NCBI GenBank assembly: GCA_019234695.1
Contig: GCA_019234695.1_3937.1
From: a phage
DNA length: 64,000 bases
Direction: 5' to 3' (one strand)
The position numbers were made by a program, and so were the translations under genes. Shown here in pieces: positions 23,529 through 60,360 of this stretch. Numbering within the stretch: the first letter of the stretch is position 1; each line of letters begins with the position of its first letter. Under the pieces are notes generated by a model. It worked only from the letters and a program-made list of their open reading frames with translations. It searched no databases and had not been told where the DNA came from.

Positions 23529-23900
23529 ATGAAAAACAGAACAAACAAAGGCCAGTTTAAAAAAGGCCAGTCTGGAAACCCATCTGGAAGACCAAAAGGC
23601 TCTCGTAACAAAAGCTCACTTGTAAAAGCTCAACTGACCATTGATAATTCTGCTGAGTTTGCTGCAAAGTTGTTTGAAGCAATTGTTACAAGGGATGCTG
23701 CTAAGCTTGCAGAGTTCGGGTTAAACACAGACGACGTAACCATCAAGAGCATGATTGAGGTCGGTAAAACTATCATGACTCACTCAGCAGGTGAGATGAA
23801 AGCCATTGCAGCAGACACTAAGAAGACTCCTGATAACGGTGGTCAGTCTCAGACAGATAACAAACCAACGTTCTCTGCTGTTGCAACCCTCAAAAAATAA
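23529..23900 (+). CDS. hypothetical protein with GNPSGRPKG motif
   Basis: ORF track; AAGAGG RBS; N-terminal KGQSGNPSGRPKGSRNK basic motif. Confidence 0.5.
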   Translation: MKNRTNKGQFKKGQSGNPSGRPKGSRNKSSLVKAQLTIDNSAEFAAKLFEAIVTRDAAKLAEFGLNTDDVTIKSMIEVGKTIMTHSAGEMKAIAADTKKTPDNGGQSQTDNKPTFSAVATLKK

Positions 23901-23912
23901 TTTTAAAAGATG

Positions 23913-23942
23913 TTGACAGACTCTACAAAGTTGCTCTAAAGT
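23913..23942 (+). promoter_or_regulatory. promoter embedded in inverted repeat, upstream of Ro60-like gene
   Basis: TTGACA-18-TAAAGT; flanked by inverted repeat TGACAGACT / AGTCTGTCA. Confidence 0.4.
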
Positions 23943-23981
23943 CTGTCACATCAAACAACAAATGAGAGAAGAGAGTAAAAT

Positions 23982-25397
23982 ATGAGCGAATTATTTAAAC
24001 ATGCGAACCTTCATGCAGGTCGAACTGAAAATGGTGCTGTAAACCATACTTCATCAATGTCTGCTCTTGTAGACTTTTACAAAGCTGCTGGTTCAAGCCG
24101 TAGCAACGTAGAAATCTTACCAGACCTGTTCTACAAAGCTTTGCGTGAGGATGTTGATGTTGCAGTTCGTATTTTGCTTCATATGCGAGATGTACGAGAA
24201 GGTATGGGTGAGCGTAAAGCCTTCAGAACTGTTTTGCTTCAAGCAATTGAAGATAAAGTTTTAGAGCCTACACAGGTTCTTCGCATTATGGATAAGATTG
24301 CAGAACTTGGTCGTTTTGATGACTTCAAAATCTTCGTGGGTACTTGTTTCGAGACAGATGCCTTCAAACATTTAGAAGCAGCATTACTAGACCCTGCAAC
24401 AGCAGGTTTGGCGGCTAAGTGGTTACCACGAGTCAAACCACGTCATAAGCAGTTTGTAAAACGTTTCTGCAAGTTTGCCAACTTGAGTGAGAAAGAGTAC
24501 CGCACACTGTTGTCTGCACTATCTGATACAGTTGAGCAAAAAATCTCTGCTAATGAGTTTGGTAAGATTGACTACAGTAAGATTCCTTCACTTGCTGCTG
24601 CACGTTACCAAAAACTGTTTAACCGTAAAGATGGAGAGCGTTACAAAGCTTACATCGAGTCCTTATCAAAAGGTGAGACTAAGATTAGCGCTGGTGCTGT
24701 TTACCCATACGATGTGATTAAATCCGTCAAGCATGGTAATGCAGATGTTGCTAATGAGCAGTGGAAAGCACTACCAAACTGGATGGCAGAAGGTGAAAAC
24801 ATCTTGTGTATGTCTGATGTATCAAGTTCAATGTCTTGGGTGAATTTTGGCTCCATTACTGCTCTGGATATTGGTGTATCACTTGCCTTGTATGTAGCAG
24901 AACGCAATACAGGTTGCTTTAAGAATGAGTTGATGGTTTATTCAACAAACCCTCACTTCATCGAACTGAGTGGTGATTTACGAAACCGTCATCGTCAGGT
25001 GATGCGACACGTTGAATATGGCTCAACTAACTTACAAGCAGCTTTTGACCGCATTCTTGAGACAGGCAAAAGAAACAACTTGACTCAGAAAGATATGCCA
25101 AGTAAGCTTATCATCTTCTCCGATATGGAGTTTAATCAGGTTGATGGGGCTAACGGTCGTACAAACTTTGAAGCAATTCAGAGTAAGTACAAAAAAGCTG
25201 GATATGAGATGCCACAACTGGTATTCTGGTACTTAGCAAACCGTAATGGTACTTGCGAAGTATCTGTTAAGGATAACGGTGTAGCAATGGTATCAGGGTT
25301 CTCTCCAGCCACTTTAAAAGCTCTGCTTGGTGGTGAGAAGTTTGACCCAATCAGTGTAATGCTCAAAGCAGTAATGATTGACCGTTATATCTGGTAA
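23982..25397 (+). CDS. Ro60-like protein (helical N-terminal domain plus vWA/MIDAS domain)
   Basis: 471 aa; SDVSSSM (DxSxS MIDAS), LIIFSDMEFN and GFSPATLKAL align by eye with human Ro60 vWA segments DVSASM, FIVFTDNETF, GFDTGAL (recalled). Confidence 0.5.
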   Translation: MSELFKHANLHAGRTENGAVNHTSSMSALVDFYKAAGSSRSNVEILPDLFYKALREDVDVAVRILLHMRDVREGMGERKAFRTVLLQAIEDKVLEPTQVLRIMDKIAELGRFDDFKIFVGTCFETDAFKHLEAALLDPATAGLAAKWLPRVKPRHKQFVKRFCKFANLSEKEYRTLLSALSDTVEQKISANEFGKIDYSKIPSLAAARYQKLFNRKDGERYKAYIESLSKGETKISAGAVYPYDVIKSVKHGNADVANEQWKALPNWMAEGENILCMSDVSSSMSWVNFGSITALDIGVSLALYVAERNTGCFKNELMVYSTNPHFIELSGDLRNRHRQVMRHVEYGSTNLQAAFDRILETGKRNNLTQKDMPSKLIIFSDMEFNQVDGANGRTNFEAIQSKYKKAGYEMPQLVFWYLANRNGTCEVSVKDNGVAMVSGFSPATLKALLGGEKFDPISVMLKAVMIDRYIW

Positions 25398-25415
25398 AAA
25401 GTTTTAAAAAGGGTA

Positions 25416-25444
25416 TTGACAATGTGTTTAATACCCTTTAATAT
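25416..25444 (+). promoter_or_regulatory. sigma70-like promoter upstream of tRNA cluster
   Basis: TTGACA-17-TAATAT; -35 flanked by inverted repeat GGGTATT / AATACCC. Confidence 0.55.
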
Positions 25445-25506
25445 GTTCTACATAGAAACGAAATGAGAGCTTTTCTAAGATACTGAAAAATATTTTAAAA
25501 AAGTTC

Positions 25507-25536
25507 TTGACAACCACTAAAAAATAATGTTAAAGT
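25507..25536 (+). promoter_or_regulatory. second promoter upstream of tRNA cluster
   Basis: TTGACA-18-TAAAGT with inverted repeat AACCACT / AGTGGTT; ~25 nt upstream of first tRNA. Confidence 0.4.
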
Positions 25537-25560
25537 GGTTACATAGAGTTTGAAAAGTTT

Positions 25561-25637
25561 ATCTCTGTTTAGCTCAGCTTGGTAGAGCGTTCCGTTTGGG
25601 GCGGTAAGGCCGGAGGTTCAAGTCCTCCAACAGAGAC
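25561..25637 (+). tRNA. tRNA-Pro (anticodon TGG)
   Basis: manual cloverleaf; acceptor CTCTGTT/AACAGAG, T-arm GGAGG-TTCAAGT-CCTCC, CCA encoded. Confidence 0.65.
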
Positions 25638-25644
25638 CAAATTA

Positions 25645-25722
25645 ATGTTCCAGTGGACAAAATGGTAAAGTCACCACTCTTTCAAAGTGGATATTTGAGG
25701 GTTCAAATCCCTTCTGGAACGC
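25645..25722 (+). tRNA. tRNA-Glu (TTC)
   Basis: manual fold; anticodon arm CCACT-CTTTCAA-AGTGG; T-loop TTCAAAT. Confidence 0.7.
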
Positions 25723-25728
25723 CAGTTT

Positions 25729-25802
25729 TGACAGAAGACCAATTACAGCAAACTTAATCTTATTCATCTGAAGGTAAATCGGACAAAGAAGAGATTTGGT
25801 CT
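25729..25802 (+). ncRNA. structured hairpin RNA E1 (Y RNA-like family)
   Basis: 5-prime ACAGAAGACCAATTACAGCAA pairs with 3-prime TTGGTCTGG; between tRNA-Glu and tRNA-Met. Confidence 0.45.
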
Positions 25803-25813
25803 GGTCATTAAGA

Positions 25814-25890
25814 ATTGCGGGTATAGAGAAAGGGCGTCTCACATGTCTCATTAGCATGGTATCGGCAGGTTCGACTCCTGCACCCGCCTC
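25814..25890 (+). tRNA. tRNA-Met (CAT), atypical
   Basis: anticodon arm CATGT-CTCATTA-GCATG; 1-72 mismatch and 3-nt connector before D-stem. Confidence 0.5.
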
Positions 25891-25895
25891 CAAAT

Positions 25896-25960
25896 TTACA
25901 GAAGACCGTTTACAGCAATATTTATTAAATTTTTAGCGGAAAAATTGAAAGATACGGTCT
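25896..25960 (+). ncRNA. structured hairpin RNA E2 (Y RNA-like family)
   Basis: 5-prime ACAGAAGACCGTTTACAGCAA pairs with 3-prime ACGGTCTGG; compensatory change relative to E1/E3. Confidence 0.45.
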
Positions 25961-25973
25961 GGTAATACTAAAC

Positions 25974-26050
25974 ATGGTTAGGAAGCACATAAGGTATGTG
26001 CGGTCGCCTGTTAAGCGAATGGCACAGGGTTCGAATCCCTGACTAACCGC
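25974..26050 (+). tRNA. tRNA-Asn (GTT)
   Basis: anticodon loop CTGTTAA; D-stem GCAC/GTGC; T-arm CAGGG-TTCGAAT-CCCTG. Confidence 0.7.
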
Positions 26051-26119
26051 CAAATTTAGGAGAGAAGCGATTGCTCACCGATTTGTAAGGTTCAAGTCCT
26101 TAGCCTGAATAGAAATCAA

Positions 26120-26207
26120 ATGTGTCGTTATCCCGTAGATGGTAGCGGTGGGGACTGTAAATCCCTTGTCATTGAGACTCGGTAGGTTCGACTCCTACAC
26201 GGCACAC
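26120..26207 (+). tRNA. tRNA-Tyr (GTA), long variable arm
   Basis: 88 nt; anticodon loop CTGTAAA; T-arm GTAGG-TTCGACT-CCTAC. Confidence 0.7.
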
Positions 26208-26213
26208 CAAATA

Positions 26214-26291
26214 AAGGTTATGTAGTTTAATCTGGTTAAAATACTCCCCTGTCACGGGAGATGATGAGGGTTCAAATCCCTTCATAACCGC
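26214..26291 (+). tRNA. tRNA-Asp (GTC)
   Basis: perfect acceptor GGTTATG/CATAACC; anticodon arm CTCCC-CTGTCAC-GGGAG. Confidence 0.8.
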
Positions 26292-26352
26292 CAATTTTGA
26301 GAGGGCTATTTAGCCCCTCCCTTAAAGAGTTCTTACGAGTATTCTTTAAAGG

Positions 26353-26426
26353 AGCAGAAGACCAAATACAGCAAGCATGTATGAAATTTCAAACCAATTC
26401 AATTTTGAAAATTTAAAACTTGGTCT
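26353..26426 (+). ncRNA. structured hairpin RNA E3 (Y RNA-like family)
   Basis: 5-prime CAGAAGACCAAATACAGCAA pairs with 3-prime TTGGTCTGG. Confidence 0.45.
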
Positions 26427-26438
26427 GGCTCAACAAAT

Positions 26439-26571
26439 TTACAGAAGACCGTTTACAGCAAAACTTAAACAATCTATTTCTCCGGTAAAGAAAAGGCGAG
26501 GGTTCGATTCCTTCACTCGGCAGATGTCGAGTTGGTGTAATGGTAGCACTTAAGATGATAAACAACGGTCT
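26439..26571 (+). ncRNA. candidate Y RNA (YrlA-like) with permuted tRNA-like module
   Basis: terminal stem AGACCGTT / AACGGTCT; internal order T-arm (GAGGG-TTCGATT-CCTTC), ACTCGGC, 4-nt loop, GTCGAGT, D-arm (GTGTAATGGTAGCAC). Confidence 0.5.
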
Positions 26572-26573
26572 GG

Positions 26574-26716
26574 TAATTATCTTTGTAGATAAGTTATTAA
26601 GCTTACCTGTGAGTATGCGACCACAAAGGGTGAATGGGTAAATTCTAGATTTAAACCCAAAAAGGCACATCGCTACAGACCTTAAGCAAGTCTGGGTAGC
26701 TTATCTACAAAGATAA
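26574..26716 (+). ncRNA. long hairpin element with 18-bp terminal inverted repeat
   Basis: ATTATCTTTGTAGATAAG (26574-26591) is the exact reverse complement of CTTATCTACAAAGATAAT (26699-26716); ~107 nt interior with sub-hairpins. Confidence 0.4.
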
Positions 26717-26720
26717 TTTA

Positions 26721-26796
26721 ATGGAAGTGTAGCAGAATGGTGATGCGGCAGACTTTTAATCTGACAGGCGATGGGTTCGAATCCCTCCACTTCTAC
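26721..26796 (+). tRNA. tRNA-Lys (TTT), weak T-stem
   Basis: anticodon loop CTTTTAA; acceptor GGAAGTG/CACTTCT; T-stem has two mismatches. Confidence 0.55.
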
Positions 26797-26800
26797 CAAT

Positions 26801-26877
26801 ATGGTTCAGTCGCAGATAAGGTAATGCAAGGGTCTCATAAGCCCTATGAATGTGGGTTCGATTCCCATCTGAACCTC
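26801..26877 (+). tRNA. tRNA-Met (CAT)
   Basis: perfect acceptor GGTTCAG/CTGAACC; anticodon arm AGGGT-CTCATAA-GCCCT. Confidence 0.7.
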
Positions 26878-26878
26878 C

Positions 26879-26954
26879 AAGCTGGTATAGTTAAGAAGGT
26901 TATAACACTCCCCTGATAAGGGAACATCGGTGGTTCGATTCCACCTACCAGTAC
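26879..26954 (+). tRNA. tRNA-Ile (GAT)
   Basis: anticodon loop CTGATAA; T-arm GGTGG-TTCGATT-CCACC. Confidence 0.75.
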
Positions 26955-26969
26955 CAATTTCAATAAAGT

Positions 26970-26998
26970 TGTTGACATTGAGATGTGACTACTTTATA
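26970..26998 (+). promoter_or_regulatory. internal sigma70-like promoter within tRNA cluster
   Basis: TTGACA-17-TATAGT after tRNA-Ile; precedes ~200 nt tRNA-free structured segment. Confidence 0.55.
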
Positions 26999-27200
26999 GT
27001 AACCTTAGTTTTCGTTGCGTAGCGTCTATTTTGCAAATTTAAAATAAATGCAAACGACAATGTTTTTCTGGCAGTAGCTTGATAGGCTAAACACCAGTGA
27101 GGTCTTCCAATCCCTCATCAAAGAATTTGGCGTACTCGCCCACGGTATGATTAATAAGGTGGGCATCTTTAAGGGCTTTCTAAGAGAGTCTTTAAAGATA

Positions 27201-27277
27201 ATGCACCCTTAGTTCAATTGGATAGAGCAACGGTCTTCTAAATCGTTAGTTACAGGTTCGAATCCTGTAGGGTGTAC
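27201..27277 (+). tRNA. tRNA-Arg (TCT)
   Basis: anticodon arm ACGGT-CTTCTAA-ATCGT; T-arm ACAGG-TTCGAAT-CCTGT. Confidence 0.8.
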
Positions 27278-27419
27278 CAAATAGTTAGCAGATTACTTAG
27301 ACGGCCTTAGCGGGTCTTCCTGTAGGGAGGTGGTCTGTATCTCATGTTTTCCAGAACATGTAAATAATCTGAGAAGGAGCTTGACAGTGTTGAGATAACA
27401 GGGTAAGCTTCGAATTATA

Positions 27420-27502
27420 ATATGGGACGATGTTAAGACTCTAAGGCATGAGCAACGGCCTCCAAAACCGTTTCAAAGGGGTTCAACTCCTCCGTCCCAT
27501 GC
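27420..27502 (+). tRNA. tRNA-Trp (CCA)-like, atypical
   Basis: perfect acceptor ATGGGAC/GTCCCAT; anticodon loop CTCCAAA; ~7 extra nt between acceptor and D-arm. Confidence 0.45.
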
Positions 27503-27515
27503 CAAAGTCTTATTA

Positions 27516-27603
27516 GGGGTAGGTAGCGGCTAATGGTAGCCAAACTGTCTTGAAAACAGTTGCCACTGTAGAGATACGGTGAGGGTTCGACTCCTTTACT
27601 TAC
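27516..27603 (+). tRNA. tRNA-Ser (TGA), long variable arm
   Basis: anticodon arm ACTGT-CTTGAAA-ACAGT; 20-nt variable arm; CCA not encoded. Confidence 0.75.
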
Positions 27604-27757
27604 CGCCTAATAAGATTTACTCCGTCCATGCTTGTTCGCATTGTCGGTTTATCCCTCGTGTATTGTCGTACACTGTCAAAGCACCTAGTAGGTGTCACGG
27701 AGAAGAGATAATATCAAGCTCTCCAAAGGTTCTAGTCACCGGATTAAACAAGACTAT

Positions 27758-27780
27758 GCAAAGACCTATTTAGGTCTTTT
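27758..27780 (+). terminator. terminator-like hairpin inside tRNA cluster
   Basis: AGACCTA-TT-TAGGTCT followed by TTTTT. Confidence 0.45.
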
Positions 27781-27859
27781 TAGAGGGCTTCTAAGGTTAT
27801 TAGTCGCTTGTTGTGGAACCTTGTTGCTTAGGTTCTTAGAAGTTCTCTAAAAAGATTTA

Positions 27860-27937
27860 ATGGGAGATTGACGGTAATTGGTAAACCTACCATCCTTAGA
27901 AGTTGGTGTTTGAGGGTTCGAATCCCTTGTCTCCTAC
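27860..27937 (+). tRNA. tRNA with anticodon TAG (Leu by anticodon), short variable arm
   Basis: acceptor GGGAGAT/GTCTCCT; anticodon loop CTTAGAA; discriminator A; 5-nt variable region. Confidence 0.5.
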
Positions 27938-27944
27938 CAAATTA

Positions 27945-28020
27945 ATGCAGGTGTAGCAAAATGGTTATGCGGCTGACTCTTAATCAGTAAGACGATGGGT
28001 TCAATTCCCTCCACCTGTAC
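27945..28020 (+). tRNA. tRNA-Lys (CTT), weak T-stem
   Basis: paralog of 26721..26796; anticodon arm GCTGA-CTCTTAA-TCAGT. Confidence 0.55.
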
Positions 28021-28026
28021 CAAACA

Positions 28027-28102
28027 TTGGGGATGTAGTTTACATGGTTAAAACATAAGTTTTGCAAACTTAAGTACAGGGTTCAATTCCCTGCTTCTCC
28101 AC
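28027..28102 (+). tRNA. tRNA-Ala (TGC)
   Basis: anticodon arm TAAGT-TTTGCAA-ACTTA; T-arm CAGGG-TTCAATT-CCCTG. Confidence 0.7.
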
Positions 28103-28108
28103 CAATTA

Positions 28109-28183
28109 GTGCATCCATAGTTTAAACGGGAAAATTACAGTCTTCCAAACTGAGGTTGAGGGTTCGATTCCCTCTGGATGCTC
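28109..28183 (+). tRNA. tRNA-Gly (TCC)
   Basis: perfect acceptor GCATCCA/TGGATGC; anticodon loop CTTCCAA; 75 nt. Confidence 0.7.
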
Positions 28184-28189
28184 CAAACA

Positions 28190-28266
28190 ATGCTGCTTTC
28201 GTATAATTGGCTATTACACATCCCTTGTAAGGATGGAAATGCAGGTTCGAGTCCTGTGAGCAGCAC
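28190..28266 (+). tRNA. tRNA-Thr (TGT)
   Basis: anticodon arm CATCC-CTTGTAA-GGATG; T-arm GCAGG-TTCGAGT-CCTGT. Confidence 0.8.
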
Positions 28267-28269
28267 CAA

Positions 28270-28357
28270 TTCAGAGGTCAAGTGAAAGACCGCTTTGAGT
28301 CAACTGAAGACCGTAACAAATACCACGGAGTTGAGTTAGCGGCACAACTTCAGACCT
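28270..28357 (+). ncRNA. structured hairpin RNA E5 (divergent member)
   Basis: outer stem CAGAGGTC / GACCTCTG; internal CTGAAGACCGTAACAAA resembles the E-family 5-prime motif. Confidence 0.35.
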
Positions 28358-28362
28358 CTTTC

Positions 28363-28437
28363 ATACTCGCTTAGTTTATATGGTAAAACATCACCCTTAC
28401 AAGATGAAGAAAAAGGTTCAAGTCCTTTAGTGAGTAC
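28363..28437 (+). tRNA. tRNA-Val (TAC)
   Basis: anticodon loop CTTACAA; T-arm AAAGG-TTCAAGT-CCTTT. Confidence 0.7.
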
Positions 28438-28438
28438 C

Positions 28439-28516
28439 ATGTTCCAGTATCCCAATTGGCAGAGGATGCAAGCTCAAACCTTGTATTAGTGACGGTTCGA
28501 ATCCGTCTTGGAACAC
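28439..28516 (+). tRNA. tRNA with anticodon CAA (Leu by anticodon), short variable arm
   Basis: acceptor GTTCCAG/TTGGAAC; anticodon arm GCAAG-CTCAAAC-CTTGT; discriminator A. Confidence 0.5.
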
Positions 28517-28521
28517 CAATT

Positions 28522-28597
28522 TTGCAGGATTAGTTCAAATGGAAAGAGCAACAGTCTACGAAGCTGTTAATAGGGGTTCGAATCCCTTATCCTGCGC
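28522..28597 (+). tRNA. tRNA-Arg (ACG)
   Basis: perfect acceptor GCAGGAT/ATCCTGC; anticodon loop CTACGAA. Confidence 0.8.
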
Positions 28598-28616
28598 CAG
28601 ATAAAAAGGTGATACT

Positions 28617-28859
28617 ATGCAAACATTAACAGTAGTTGAACATGAAAACTGTGAGAGTATTGAGTTTGTCAGGGTCATTGGTGTTGAACACCACATTTTC
28701 TTAAAAGTGGGATACTTATGCGACCCCGCTAGAGTAGAAAGATTTATACGTGATTGTTTTGGTGGTAGACATCTGAAGAGTGTTATTTTTGAGACAGTTT
28801 TACCAGAAGGTTTAGAAACGAATAATAACATTTACCTCCTTACGAGGATTAGACAATGA
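28617..28859 (+). CDS. hypothetical small protein embedded in tRNA cluster
   Basis: ORF track; AAAGGTG RBS-like upstream. Confidence 0.4.
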   Translation: MQTLTVVEHENCESIEFVRVIGVEHHIFLKVGYLCDPARVERFIRDCFGGRHLKSVIFETVLPEGLETNNNIYLLTRIRQ

Positions 28860-29413
28860 GATACTTAAAGTATGCTTCATGGATTTTCTTAGCTTTGTTA
28901 GAGCCATTTGCAGCAATCTTAGCAGTTATCTTAGCACCTTTTGTAGTTCCATTCTACAGTGAGAAGAAAGGACACTTACCTTTCGGGTTCAGATGGATGG
29001 AGACATATGACAACCCAATTGATGGTGATGAAGGTCACGTTAAAAGATGGGCTAATATTAGATGGATTGGTAAACTAGGTGTCTACATGCAAAGAGTCGG
29101 ATGGCTCTGGAGAAACAAAGCTTATAACTTCTCTTACCATGTATTAGGAAGAGATGTAAGAGATGTTACTAAGTGGAAAGGTAATATCAACGTAAGTTCT
29201 AACCCTGAAGATAATCAGACTGGTTATCTCCTAATGTGGAACAGTAATGCTTGGGGATTATTCGCTTTTATCCCATCAATTAAAGTCTTCGGTAAACAGT
29301 TTTACTGGAGAATTTATGTTGGATGGAAACTTAAAAGTGTTGTCCCAGAAGAAAGAGCATTCTCAAGGGAAAGAGTTATGTTGGCATTCTTTATTCATCC
29401 ACTGAGAAAGTAA
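28856..29413 (+). CDS. hypothetical membrane protein embedded in tRNA cluster
   Basis: ORF track; hydrophobic N-terminus; 4-nt start/stop overlap with upstream ORF. Confidence 0.5.
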   Translation: MRYLKYASWIFLALLEPFAAILAVILAPFVVPFYSEKKGHLPFGFRWMETYDNPIDGDEGHVKRWANIRWIGKLGVYMQRVGWLWRNKAYNFSYHVLGRDVRDVTKWKGNINVSSNPEDNQTGYLLMWNSNAWGLFAFIPSIKVFGKQFYWRIYVGWKLKSVVPEERAFSRERVMLAFFIHPLRK

Positions 29414-29420
29414 AGATTTA

Positions 29421-29496
29421 AAGGGGATTAGTTTACAAGGTTAAAACCTCGGTCTTTGAAATCGAAGAAGTTGGTTCAATTCCAACATCCCCCGCC
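29421..29496 (+). tRNA. tRNA-Gln (TTG)
   Basis: anticodon arm TCGGT-CTTTGAA-ATCGA; T-arm GTTGG-TTCAATT-CCAAC; weak 1-72 pair. Confidence 0.65.
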
Positions 29497-29498
29497 AA

Positions 29499-29577
29499 TG
29501 CTCCATTACTCCAATTGGCAGAGAGGCCAGACTTAAAATCTGTGTTATGTATCGGTTCGAATCCGATATGGAGTACC
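29499..29577 (+). tRNA. tRNA with anticodon TAA (Leu by anticodon), short variable arm
   Basis: acceptor GCTCCAT/ATGGAGT; anticodon loop CTTAAAA; 7-nt variable region; discriminator A. Confidence 0.5.
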
Positions 29578-29582
29578 AAATT

Positions 29583-29658
29583 TAGCGGTATAGCATAACT
29601 GGCAATGCAGCAGTCTCTGAAGCTGTCCTATTAAGGTTCAAATCCTTATGCCGCTGCC
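29583..29658 (+). tRNA. tRNA-Gln (CTG)
   Basis: D-stem GCAT/ATGC; anticodon loop CTCTGAA; T-arm TAAGG-TTCAAAT-CCTTA. Confidence 0.6.
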
Positions 29659-29689
29659 ACTTCTAAGGATTCTTACGAGAGTCCTTAAA

Positions 29690-29765
29690 TGTGGCCTTAT
29701 CATAAATGGTAATGCCCCATGCTGTGAACATGGTCTATACGGGTTCAAATCCCGTAGGTCACCCC
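29690..29765 (+). tRNA. tRNA-His (GTG)
   Basis: perfect anticodon arm CCATG-CTGTGAA-CATGG; T-arm ACGGG-TTCAAAT-CCCGT. Confidence 0.75.
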
Positions 29766-29771
29766 AATTTA

Positions 29772-29847
29772 TAGTCCAAGTAGCTTATATGGTTAAAGCG
29801 CGTGTCTGAAAAACATGAGAAGAGGGTTCAAATCCCACTGGACTACC
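29772..29847 (+). tRNA. tRNA-Phe (GAA)
   Basis: anticodon loop CTGAAAA; D-stem GCTT/AAGC; acceptor register ambiguous by 1 nt. Confidence 0.65.
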
Positions 29848-29864
29848 AATTTCAAAGGTGCTTA

Positions 29865-30599
29865 ATGAAAGAGATGACAGAACAAGGTAAGGAGATTTTC
29901 AATCTCTTAAAAACCGGTAAAGGGTTTTCTAACCCCCTTATTACTGGTGCAGCAGTTCTCGGTGGAACCGTAGCTGCCTCTACATCACTTGTAAGCTCTA
30001 TTAGCTCTGTATCAGACCCTACAGTAAAGGATAAGCTTGTTGCTGCTGGACTTACAACAGTTCTGCTTAACAGCTTTACCACGAGTCTGACAAGCACTAC
30101 ATCAACTACCAAAACACTAACAGATTACGGTCAAAAGTCCATTGATGAGTTTTCATCACGTATGCAGGTAGCAAAAGGTTACTCTAATGTTATGGGTGCA
30201 GCAGGTGAACAAGTTGGCTGTACACCATTTAGTGGTATTATGGGTGTTGCTACAGAGTATGGTCAAAAAACTATTGATACGATTAACAGTGCACTAGATA
30301 GTGTTAATGGTGTGTTAAGTGACTTACAAGATGCTATTGACAAAGGTCTTGATACTATTTCTGATTTAGCTGAGCAAGCTGTTAGTAAGATTAATGAAGG
30401 TATTTCAAAAATTACAGCTTATGCAGATGAAGTTGTGCAGATGATTGAAGAAGAAGCTGCTCTTATTGCAGAGTACCTTAAAACGAATATCAATGGGTTC
30501 TTAGCAGGTATCTTACCAGACTGGTTTGATGATGCTTGTAAAACTGGTGTAATTGACACTATTGCAACACCAGAAATGAAGAACGCATTACAGAAATAA
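29865..30599 (+). CDS. hypothetical Ser/Thr/Ala-rich protein embedded in tRNA cluster
   Basis: ORF 29802..30599 trimmed to internal ATG at 29865 because upstream part overlaps tRNA-Phe. Confidence 0.5.
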   Translation: MKEMTEQGKEIFNLLKTGKGFSNPLITGAAVLGGTVAASTSLVSSISSVSDPTVKDKLVAAGLTTVLLNSFTTSLTSTTSTTKTLTDYGQKSIDEFSSRMQVAKGYSNVMGAAGEQVGCTPFSGIMGVATEYGQKTIDTINSALDSVNGVLSDLQDAIDKGLDTISDLAEQAVSKINEGISKITAYADEVVQMIEEEAALIAEYLKTNINGFLAGILPDWFDDACKTGVIDTIATPEMKNALQK

Positions 30600-30601
30600 A
30601 T

Positions 30602-30694
30602 GGAAGATTAACCCTAAAAGGTAAGGGAGCAGTTTGCTAAACTGCCAGTAGCTGAGAAATCGGTGTACCAGTTCAAGTCTGGTATCTTCCTCCA
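30602..30694 (+). tRNA. tRNA-Ser (GCT), long variable arm
   Basis: 93 nt; perfect acceptor GGAAGAT/ATCTTCC; perfect anticodon arm GCAGT-TTGCTAA-ACTGC. Confidence 0.8.
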
Positions 30695-30698
30695 ATTT

Positions 30699-30774
30699 GA
30701 ATCCGTGACAGAAACGGCTATGTGCCTGTCTGCAAAACAGGTTTATAAGGGTTCGAGTCCCTTCGGATTCTCCA
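30699..30774 (+). tRNA. tRNA-Cys (GCA)
   Basis: perfect acceptor GAATCCG/CGGATTC; perfect anticodon arm CCTGT-CTGCAAA-ACAGG. Confidence 0.8.
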
Positions 30775-30811
30775 AGTTATTTTACTCTCTCTCAATTAAA
30801 ATAATAATAAT

Positions 30812-30871
30812 GCCCTGCTATAAGTATTCTTCCTTTCGCTACCGAAGAGTATTTTTAGACAGGGCTTTTTT
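30812..30871 (+). terminator. compound hairpin terminator after tRNA-Cys
   Basis: GCCCTG ... CAGGGC with nested hairpin, then TTTTTT. Confidence 0.5.
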
Positions 30872-30926
30872 ACAGAGTTATACTTTATAGGAAGACTTAT
30901 ACAGTATGTCTCTGACGTACATTGTG

Positions 30927-58544: not shown

Positions 58545-58930
58545 TGCCATCCTTCCATACCTTACTTTACCACACCTAACCATACCTAACCAAACTATAC
58601 CATACAATACCTTGTTAAAAGACCCTTTTAAAGACCTTTTAAAAAGGTAAGTCTCATTTTAATGTAGCTGAGACTAACTACCCATACATTACCTTACCAT
58701 ACCAGACCTCACCCTACCTTAACTTACCTTACTCTATCCTACCAAACACCACTTAAAAACCCTCTTAGAAGACTCTTAAGTGATGTAATCGGATTTTTAT
58801 GTAGCTCCGATTAACTACCCATACCAAGCCTAACCTGACCGCACCAAACCTTACAACACCACACCATACCTGACCATACCAAACCTCATTAAAAGACCCT
58901 CTTAAAGACCTTTTAAAAAGGAGCCTCCGA
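58545..58930. repeat. G-depleted (C/A/T-rich) tracts with conserved-loop hairpins, region 1
   Basis: plus strand nearly lacks G over long CCATACC-type runs; hairpins at ~58660-58687 and ~58787-58814 share loop TTTWATGTAGC. Confidence 0.6.
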
Positions 58931-60074: not shown

Positions 60075-60360
60075 TACTACCATCCACCCATACCATACCG
60101 AACCTTACCTTACCAAACCAGACCGCGCCTTACCAAACCAGACCAAACATTACTTTACCCTACCTCATTAAAAAACCCTCTTAAAGACCTTTTAAAAAGG
60201 TAAGTCTCATTTTAATGTAGATGAGACTAACTACCCATACTGTACCGCACCTGACCCGACCTGACCAGACCTAGCATTACCGTGCCACACCGTACCGAAC
60301 AGAACACTACCATACCTCACATCACTTAAAAACCATCTTAGAAGACTCTTAAGTGATGCT
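60075..60360. repeat. G-depleted tracts with conserved-loop hairpin, region 2
   Basis: 60165-60240 near-identical to 58615-58687; CACTTAAAAACC.TCTTAGAAGACTCTTAAGTG at 60322-60358 matches 58749-58787. Confidence 0.6.

Follow-up and report, generated by a model that had tools for sequence, protein, structure and literature searches.

A divergent Ro60-type protein of a Felix O1-like phage and its candidate partners, Y-RNA-like small RNAs in the adjoining tRNA array

Particles made of Ro60 and Y RNA are found in animals, in about 5% of bacteria and in a few phage groups, and how Y RNAs direct Ro60 is only partly understood. A stretch of phage DNA of 64,000 nucleotides (GenBank assembly GCA_019234695.1, contig GCA_019234695.1_3937.1; in the following simply the window) raises the question of whether such a particle can be encoded around a tRNA array. 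Here, an open reading frame (ORF) at 23982..25397 on the plus strand lies directly upstream of 26 tRNA genes on the same strand (25563-30774), in a region that matches Felix O1-like phages (Felixounavirus), FelixO1 (NC_005282) among them, at 97-98% identity. The original prediction read this gene and the hairpins downstream of it as a phage Ro60 / Y-RNA module, and our comparisons support that reading as far as computation can. We consider it probable that the gene encodes a divergent Ro60-type protein and that four RNA elements, E1-E4, and probably a fifth, E5, are its cognate small RNAs, forming a distinct Y-RNA-like family (Table 1). The idea is partly anticipated for this locus, as the orthologous protein gp130 of phage Bas63 has been called Ro60-like and Y RNAs were suspected beside it (PMC11482910). 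The protein side is thus already known, whereas the partner RNA family, Ro60/Y-RNA-like in kind, appears to be new.

Regarding the protein, the motifs SDVSSSM, LIIFSDMEFN and GFSPATLKAL, which had been singled out beforehand, are all present in the 471-aa product. A Pfam hmmscan (E<=1) assigned its C-terminal part to DUF7788 (1.8e-43) and its N-terminal part to DUF2828 (2.1e-30), and the PHROGs assignment is phrog_850, 'RNA-binding protein'. An AlphaFold2 model built from the family alignment (predicted local distance difference test, pLDDT, 89.3; predicted template modelling score, pTM, 0.89) was compared with the PDB using Foldseek. The best 11 matches were all Ro60 with full-length alignments, among them Xenopus 1YVR (TM 0.67), human Ro60 complexes, Deinococcus Rsr and the Ro60 of Thermus phage phiLo; below these came isolated vWA domains with E>1e-3. 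Identity in the structural alignments to Ro60 was 12-16%. The model consists of an alpha-helical repeat ring followed by a vWA domain, in which the DxSxS...T...D residues of the MIDAS, the metal ion-dependent adhesion site, namely D279, S281, S283, T349 and D381, are invariant across 41 homologs. The expectation of a helical N-terminal part and a Ro60-like vWA domain is therefore borne out by the fold matches, the invariant MIDAS and the profile alignment described next.

At the sequence level, hhalign aligned residues 187-447 with five TROVE-type phage Ro proteins (242 columns, E 2.7e-5, probability 74%). The alignment is colinear with the last helices and the vWA domain of these proteins and places the MIDAS on DVSGSM/GGTD/TDNE. 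When a single TROVE sequence was used instead, the MIDAS strand alone was matched, and this comparison was set aside. From the fold matches and the alignment of the C-terminal half we conclude that the protein is, on the modelled structure, a remote and divergent Ro60 homolog, with a clear fold and with sequence support limited to the C-terminal half; that it adopts the Ro60 fold we regard, given the model, as very nearly certain. By tblastn the DUF2828/DUF7788 family was found in 710 phage records, including phages of Escherichia, Salmonella, Vibrio, Listeria, Staphylococcus, Campylobacter, Enterococcus, Bacillus and Mycobacterium. Canonical TROVE-type Ro60 occurred in 358 phage records, a set distinct from this family. 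The gene is labelled 'RNA-binding protein' in the FelixO1 RefSeq record, in which the spacers between the tRNAs are unannotated, and actinophage members are annotated as 'Ro-like RNA binding protein'. Pfam also lists DUF2828 in plants and fungi.

Inside the tRNA cluster, four hairpin elements sharing one closing helix had been proposed, and four were indeed found. An exact 20-nt motif, CAGAAGACCNNNTACAGCAA, occurs at 25732, 25899, 26355 and 26442, each time on the plus strand, where 0.23 occurrences would be expected by chance in the window with up to three mismatches allowed. Downstream of each copy lies a GGTCTGG partner (25798, 25956, 26422 and 26567), and all four copies adopt one common predicted fold. 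Its outermost part is a 4-bp stem that covaries between copies (UGAC/GUCA, UUAC/GUAA, GAGC/GCUC), followed by a 5' AGA bulge facing a single 3' G, of the general form A-N-A, and by a 7-bp inner stem, AGACCNN/NNGGUCU, closing a loop that starts with UUACAGCAA. The elements are located on the gene strand 332-1179 nt downstream of the stop codon, within the distance of about 4 kb on the same strand used to recognise YrlA. E1 and E2 each occupy the spacer between two tRNAs, while E3 and E4 come after tRNA-Asp. One boundary needed correction: E4 ends at 26576 and not at 26571, and a fifth structured RNA follows at 26577-26722.

In the case of E4, the closing helix and loop enclose further arms, as had been predicted for one of the elements. 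These are arranged in the order variable (V), T, acceptor-like stem (AS) and D, with the T arm GAGGG-UUCGAUU-CCUUC and the D arm GUGU-AAUGGUA-GCAC. E4 is the only element with the arm order of a YrlA tRNA-like domain; E1-E3 are without such a domain, as in YrlB. None of E1-E5 was called a tRNA in native order by ARAGORN or Rfam, and the native-order tRNA signal in E4 was confined to 26465-26515 (18.8 bits against an Rfam threshold of 29). E4 and four relatives were then cut at the AS loop, rejoined in tRNA order and given an artificial ACCA 3' end. ARAGORN recognised a tRNA in three of these five permuted sequences at default settings and in all five at the 95% threshold, each call treating the closing helix as an 'intron' of the anticodon loop. 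In the tRNA obtained from permuted E4, the acceptor stem has 7 bp, the variable arm is long, and D and T arms are present. Because the tRNA call needs circular permutation, a normal or degenerate tRNA was rejected as an explanation of E4. By its sequence and predicted arms, the E4 domain is a circularly permuted class-II-type tRNA domain, as in bacterial YrlA.

E5, directly behind E4, is a candidate member. Its side hairpin AGAC-CUUAAGCAA-GUCU-GG resembles a miniature of the shared motif, and it is conserved in the Felix O1-like (Ounavirinae) relatives, where 16 of 30 pairs are maintained via two-sided changes across four orthologs.

To follow the elements beyond the window, 80 loci were fetched from IMG/VR, with protein homologs 99% to 39% identical. 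Among the 15 Felixounavirus loci fetched, 13 carry all of E1-E4; in L009 no E4 was detectable, and the sequence of L015 ends after E1. In these orthologs the closing helix and the loop motif are invariant, while the interiors vary by substitutions and indels; in E4, the V, T, AS and D arms are conserved and the changes in the AS stem are compensatory. Relatives at 63%, 56% and 53% protein identity (L082, L083 and L081, the latter being Yersinia phage P778) retain the elements with stems that are altered yet complementary (AGUAUC/GAUACU, AGUGUCU/GGACACU, GGACUGU/ACAGUCC), and L083 also has one tRNA-like member. Across 39 distinct 47-nt cores, 98.8% of cells were paired, a percentage inflated by the fact that the 3' strands were located by requiring pairing. 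Nine of the 11 pairs showed two-sided changes, none of 500 shuffles reached these values, and no slid register came near them. A covariance model built from the Felix O1-like cores (R1) recovered E1-E3 and their orthologs and truncated E4. It was too narrow for distant phages, in which it gave weak matches only, all of them on the gene strand. The elements are real, conserved and covarying.

As the pairing percentage in the core alignment is inflated, controls of strand and position provide a fairer test. A descriptor was defined as A, an [AG]G-stem of 6-8 bp, 2-4 nt, CAGCA[AU], the complementary strand, and then G or A. Over 83 loci, 127 of its matches fell on the gene strand and 6 on the other one. 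A first, looser descriptor had been dropped as noisy (169 gene-strand versus 102 other-strand matches). A distant set of 65 loci, at 39-46% protein identity, was scanned with a variant lacking the flanking-base requirements. On the gene strand and no more than 1 kb from the gene, this gave 94 matches, or 0.75 per kb; at greater distances the density was 0.045 per kb, and on the opposite strand 0.035 per kb, so that the motif is enriched about 16-21-fold near the gene. Of the 65 distant loci, 48 have such a nearby copy, as do all Felix O1-like loci examined, whereas tRNAs were present in the fetched flanks of 24 of 71 loci checked.

Homologous genes have the motif beside them, on their own strand, in phages that infect Listeria, Staphylococcus, Bacillus, Campylobacter, Mycobacterium and Vibrio. 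In Listeria phage LP-064 the gene is immediately preceded by three copies in tandem, and in Staphylococcus phage 6ec it is immediately followed by three. Two copies lie upstream of it in Campylobacter phage PC5, and five in Bacillus phage FADO. Of the three copies that follow the gene in mycobacteriophage Faith1, the middle one has T, 7-bp AS and D arms. At five canonical TROVE-Ro60 loci, matches were weak, scattered and mostly within coding regions, none of them with the consensus loop and flanks; the closing motif of the YrlA at canonical loci is a different one. The enrichment close to the gene on its strand, the few tRNAs in the flanks and the lack of a consensus copy at the five TROVE-Ro60 loci tie the motif to the protein: it travels with the DUF2828/DUF7788 family, neither with tRNA arrays nor with canonical Ro60. 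By sequence, one member per genome often mimics a permuted tRNA. We are highly confident that the RNA family is real and that a genetic link ties it to this protein family.

A different origin of the four elements can be weighed against these results, namely that they are remnants of duplicated tRNA-spacer units with no function of their own. They are paralogous repeats in a tRNA array, where duplications are common, and their single-sequence folding z-scores are modest (-1.1 to -2.2). But in orthologs the motif stays invariant while the interiors diverge with indels, the stems covary, the motif recurs in unrelated phages with no tRNA array nearby, and the opposite strand and distant DNA are poorer in matches by the factor given above. 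This origin is largely refuted already, and we hold it to be extremely unlikely.

Another explanation is raised by the position of some copies in distant relatives, where a minimal hairpin is followed, after 1-10 nt, by the Shine-Dalgarno sequence belonging to the Ro60-like gene (L021 5950-5986, L073 5895-5948, L019 2328-2364, L080 5881-5938, L022 5946-5987). By their placement, these leader hairpins suggest translational autoregulation in the phages concerned. Accordingly, the protein might bind the hairpins as a cis-acting operator, repressing its own translation or controlling processing and stability of the tRNA-array transcript, so that E1-E4 would be regulatory sites in a precursor and not free Y-like RNAs. 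The exact fit of E1 and E2 into tRNA spacers agrees with this. However, no leader copy is found in other Ounavirinae or in the window, where the leader of the gene has the promoter-like site and a palindrome alone; the copies of Staphylococcus and Mycobacterium phages come after the gene. Furthermore, in an operator the conserved tRNA-like domain, present once per genome, would serve no evident purpose, whereas it is the hallmark of YrlA (PMC4201824). As the whole explanation, the operator is quite unlikely, although an operator role and a Y-like RNA role are compatible and not mutually exclusive.

What is reported on the ortholog gp130 bears on the role of the RNAs. Gp130 of Bas63 (Escherichia phage JohannRWettstein, MZ501086) is 97% identical over 471 aa and is encoded at the same site upstream of the same tRNA array. 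A 2024 PhageMaP preprint describes its 'high structural similarity to Ro60' and reports that it counters the Ppl defence, to which Bas63 becomes sensitive when g130 is deleted (PMC11482910). Its authors speculated that some annotated tRNA genes might be Y RNAs, and identified no RNAs (PMC11482910). The candidates described here, unlike those suspected there, sit in the spacers between tRNAs and are undescribed in that work. Using R1, we found E1-E4 in Bas63 as well, again in tRNA spacers and partly under the spurious minus-strand ORF calls bas63_0137 and bas63_0138, which cover E3-E5.

These data could also be explained by the protein alone, acting at the protein level as an inhibitor of a host defence (Ppl), with the RNA elements being either small RNAs of the phage that have nothing to do with it or spacers for tRNA processing, to which other factors bind. 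Gp130 rescues T7, which is without these elements, on the Ppl host (PMC11482910), and LeBron gp53 overexpressed alone is moderately toxic in M. smegmatis (PMC13148394). The presence of the motif within 1 kb of this gene family and on its strand in phages of five or more host phyla, mostly with no tRNA in the fetched flanks, would however be hard to explain without a functional link, and the fold is that of an RNA-binding ring. We judge an action of the protein alone to be very unlikely.

Several observations weigh against a Ro60-type protein with Y-like RNAs, and the first concern the protein. In the Pfam scan, neither TROVE (PF05731) nor a VWA model was reported at E<=1 for the 471-aa protein, so that of the profile similarity that had been proposed, the C-terminal half holds by hhalign and the Pfam part does not. 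Searches of PDB sequences with phmmer (single sequence) and hmmsearch (41-member family profile) gave no match, Ro60 included, and the hhalign alignments stop short of the N-terminal ring.

On the RNA side, a search of 25398-30900 against Rfam, at the gathering threshold and at E<=10, returned tRNAs and noise, with neither YrlA (RF02553) nor Y_RNA nor any other family for E1-E5. This result is informative since RF02553 (gathering score 69 bits) does detect the canonical YrlA of mycobacteriophage ET08 (37.4 bits, E 7e-5). At E<=1 it also had no match in the Faith1, LP-064 or 6ec loci. The YrlA 5' motif GNCGAA(N0-1)G is not present as such in the elements, which carry C-A-G-A-A-G (in relatives AUAAG, ACAGG or AAAAG), purine-rich and similarly placed but different from the YrlA motif. 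The likeness to Y RNA and YrlA that had been claimed consequently stands for the architecture and for the position beside the gene on its strand, and fails at the level of the covariance models. In addition, 17 of the 65 distant loci, and also GAP32, have no nearby descriptor match. Finally, gp130 alone, plasmid-borne or inserted in T7, restores plaquing on the Ppl host (PMC11482910), which makes the phage RNAs dispensable for that phenotype unless their place is taken by RNAs of the host.

The comparison with known systems shows where the locus agrees and differs. Phage Ro60 with adjacent Y-like RNAs has been described (PMC4201824, PMC12135203). YrlA is defined by the V-T-AS-D arm order and carries the 5' motif GNCGAA(N)G; the Ro60 ortholog binds it, TruB/DusA modify it and RNase P cuts it (PMC4201824). 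Ro60 recognises a bulged helix mainly via its 5' strand (PMC4201824, PMC12135203). Bacterial Rsr with YrlA/YrlB (Salmonella, M. smegmatis) and D. radiodurans with Yrn1 share with our locus a ring-plus-vWA protein, adjoining RNA genes on the same strand, a stem of 5' and 3' ends closing each RNA, a purine-rich 5'-strand motif followed by YUAY, and one RNA with V, T, acceptor-like and D arms in this order (PMC4201824). In contrast to Rsr, the protein here is not TROVE by Pfam; its RNAs have the motif A-N-A/[AG]G-stem/UUACAGCAA in place of GNCGAA(N)G, and four or five paralogous RNAs are embedded in a tRNA array.

The TROVE-type phage Ro60 with Yrl RNAs (mycobacteriophages ET08/Bxz1; Thermus phage phiLo, PDB 9KOP/9L5Y) belong to a separate sequence family. 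The five TROVE-type loci have no consensus CAGCAA motif copy, and the YrlA of ET08 matches RF02553, unlike the elements here. The 'Ro-like RNA binding protein' of cluster L mycobacteriophages (Faith1 gp55, LeBron gp53) is of the same family, 31-34% identical over the full length, and there the protein alone has been annotated or tested, for toxicity (PMC13148394). The Faith1 RNAs have stems GG...CC with a 3' A as opposed to AG...CU with a 3' G here, and their locus is without a tRNA array. The RNA family is absent from Rfam 15 and from the searchable literature, and a literature search for small-RNA data on Felix O1 yielded nothing.

If the Ro60-type protein and the Y-like RNAs do work together, the following course of events can be proposed. 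The 5' and 3' ends of each RNA would pair into a bulged helix (outer stem, A-N-A bulge, [A or G]G-stem) closing the UUACAGCAA loop, and helix and loop would be the likely protein-binding site, in parallel to the bulged-helix recognition by Ro60. Direct binding of the RNAs by the protein appears likely. The RNAs would be made as part of the tRNA-array transcript, driven by the promoter-like sites at 25416 and 25507. Going by the geometry, RNase P cutting at the tRNA that follows, together with 3' maturation of the one that precedes, would free E1 and E2; E5 ends exactly at tRNA-Lys. By analogy with Rsr-YrlA-PNPase and phiLo Ro60-Yrl-PNPase (PNPase, polynucleotide phosphorylase), the RNAs might act as a gate to the ring or hold it to RNases or tRNA enzymes of the host. 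Such a role as gate or tether is conceivable, with chances somewhat short of even. The phage could thereby govern what happens to structured or damaged RNAs in the course of infection.

A broader and rather unlikely possibility is that DUF2828/DUF7788 proteins and A-N-A/[AG]G-stem/UUACAGCAA RNAs make up a second, ancient Ro60-like ribonucleoprotein, commoner in phages than canonical Ro60 (710 versus 358 records). The processing of tRNAs would free its RNAs from tRNA arrays, leader copies would provide autoregulation in many phages, and the particle, beyond the protein alone, would serve as a counter-defence device shielding or repairing structured RNAs of phage and host against, for example, Ppl. 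If this were true, plant and fungal DUF2828 proteins could have unrecognised RNA partners too. On the preferred reading, a large phage family with a 'domain of unknown function' carries a Ro60 fold, together with a conserved RNA family of its own as candidate partners, with a different motif and including a tRNA mimic. The system is compact and genetically tractable: E. coli and Salmonella serve as hosts for Bas63 and Felix O1, and both a Ppl counter-defence phenotype and a library of knockouts are available. It allows one to ask what Y-like RNAs do, why they mimic tRNA and why Ro60-type genes lie in phage tRNA arrays. Moreover, the locus marks RNA genes that phage annotations have missed or overwritten with spurious small ORFs.

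Table 1. Positions of the protein gene, the candidate RNAs and the neighbouring signals in the window.
Feature	Position	Strand	Remarks
Predicted sigma-70-like promoter TTGACA-18-TAAAGT	23913..23949	+	Upstream of the Ro60-like gene; 10/12 matches in consensus scan, pattern match only
Ro60-like RNA-binding protein gene	23982..25397	+	Helical ring-type N-terminal part and C-terminal vWA with complete MIDAS; Pfam DUF2828+DUF7788; PHROG 850; ortholog of Bas63 gp130
Second promoter-like site, before array	25416-25444	+	Pattern match only
Predicted sigma-70-like promoter TTGACA-18-TAAAGT, extended -10 TG	25507..25536	+	Precedes the array of tRNAs and RNA elements; pattern match only
Six tRNA genes (Pro, Glu, Met, Asn, Tyr, Asp)	25563..26293	+	Punctuate E1 and E2; release of the elements by tRNA processing proposed
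E1, Y-like hairpin RNA (candidate)	25729..25807	+	Between tRNA-Glu (ends 25724) and tRNA-Met (starts 25816); outer stem UGAC/GUCA, AGA bulge, stem AGACCAA/UUGGUCU, loop UUACAGCAA; 50.8 bits (R1)
E2, Y-like hairpin RNA (candidate)	25896..25965	+	Between tRNA-Met (ends 25892) and tRNA-Asn (starts 25976); 55 bits
E3, Y-like hairpin RNA (candidate)	26352..26431	+	Downstream of tRNA-Asp; outer stem GAGC/GCUC; 51.3 bits
E4, YrlA-like RNA (candidate)	26439..26576	+	Same closing helix and UUACAGCAA loop, enclosing V hairpin, T arm, 7-bp acceptor-like hairpin and D arm
E5, candidate member, 148-nt long-stem RNA	26577..26722	+	Directly after E4; ends at the 5' end of tRNA-Lys (26723)
Uncertain sixth motif copy	28900..29109	+	Within 185-aa ORF 28856-29413; 8-bp AGAGCCAU/AUGGCUCU stem, UUGCAGCAA loop, then GG

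The uncertain sixth copy of the motif, the conservation of which was looked at in close relatives only, might be a site for the protein on an mRNA, or might be due to chance. Regarding the promoter-like sites, the one before the Ro60-like gene overlaps a palindrome read from the sequence, TGACAGACT...AGTCTGTCA. Both this site (23913-23949) and the one at 25507-25545 overlap an inverted repeat beginning at the -35 hexamer, and the arrangement may reflect an operator common to both or a class of phage promoters.

Directly upstream of the Ro60-like gene lies a DUF5681 gene (123 aa, 23529-23900). It was present at this place in every Felix O1-like locus examined, down to 52% identity, and absent from the more distant loci examined. 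RtcB or RNA-ligase genes are found near some homologs; these neighbours fit a theme of RNA repair or RNA quality, though infrequent, and adjacency as a general rule was rejected, having been seen at 6 of about 90 loci only. Listeria phage LP-064 has an RtcB-like ligase gene 1.3 kb downstream of the Ro60-like gene. About 1 kb upstream of its Ro60-like gene, the same phage has a ROOL RNA (L086 1429-1980; RF03087, 87 bits, E 2e-16, slightly below the gathering score).

Canonical TROVE-type Ro60 genes are likewise situated within tRNA arrays in phages of Gordonia, Streptomyces and Rhodococcus (L094, L095 and L096). In phage Trina, a 209-nt 'tRNA-OTHER' pseudogene directly upstream of the TROVE-type Ro60 gene is probably its YrlA.

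Within the array of the window, a tRNA-like fragment with a T-arm-like hairpin (UAAGG-UUCAAGU-CCUUA) lies between tRNA-Asn and tRNA-Tyr (26054-26121), on which neither ARAGORN nor Rfam made a call. Long tRNA-free gaps at 26957-27202, 27280-27517, 27608-27861 and 29849-30601 may hold further non-coding RNAs; the Rfam signals there are weak (tmRNA-like at 26898-27202, tRNA-Sec-like at 27424-27498). Far from the array, intergenic DNA between minus-strand genes holds repeats of CCAAA/CCAGA/CCTTA units, arrayed with a period of 5 nt, at 58682-58732 and at 60088-60153.

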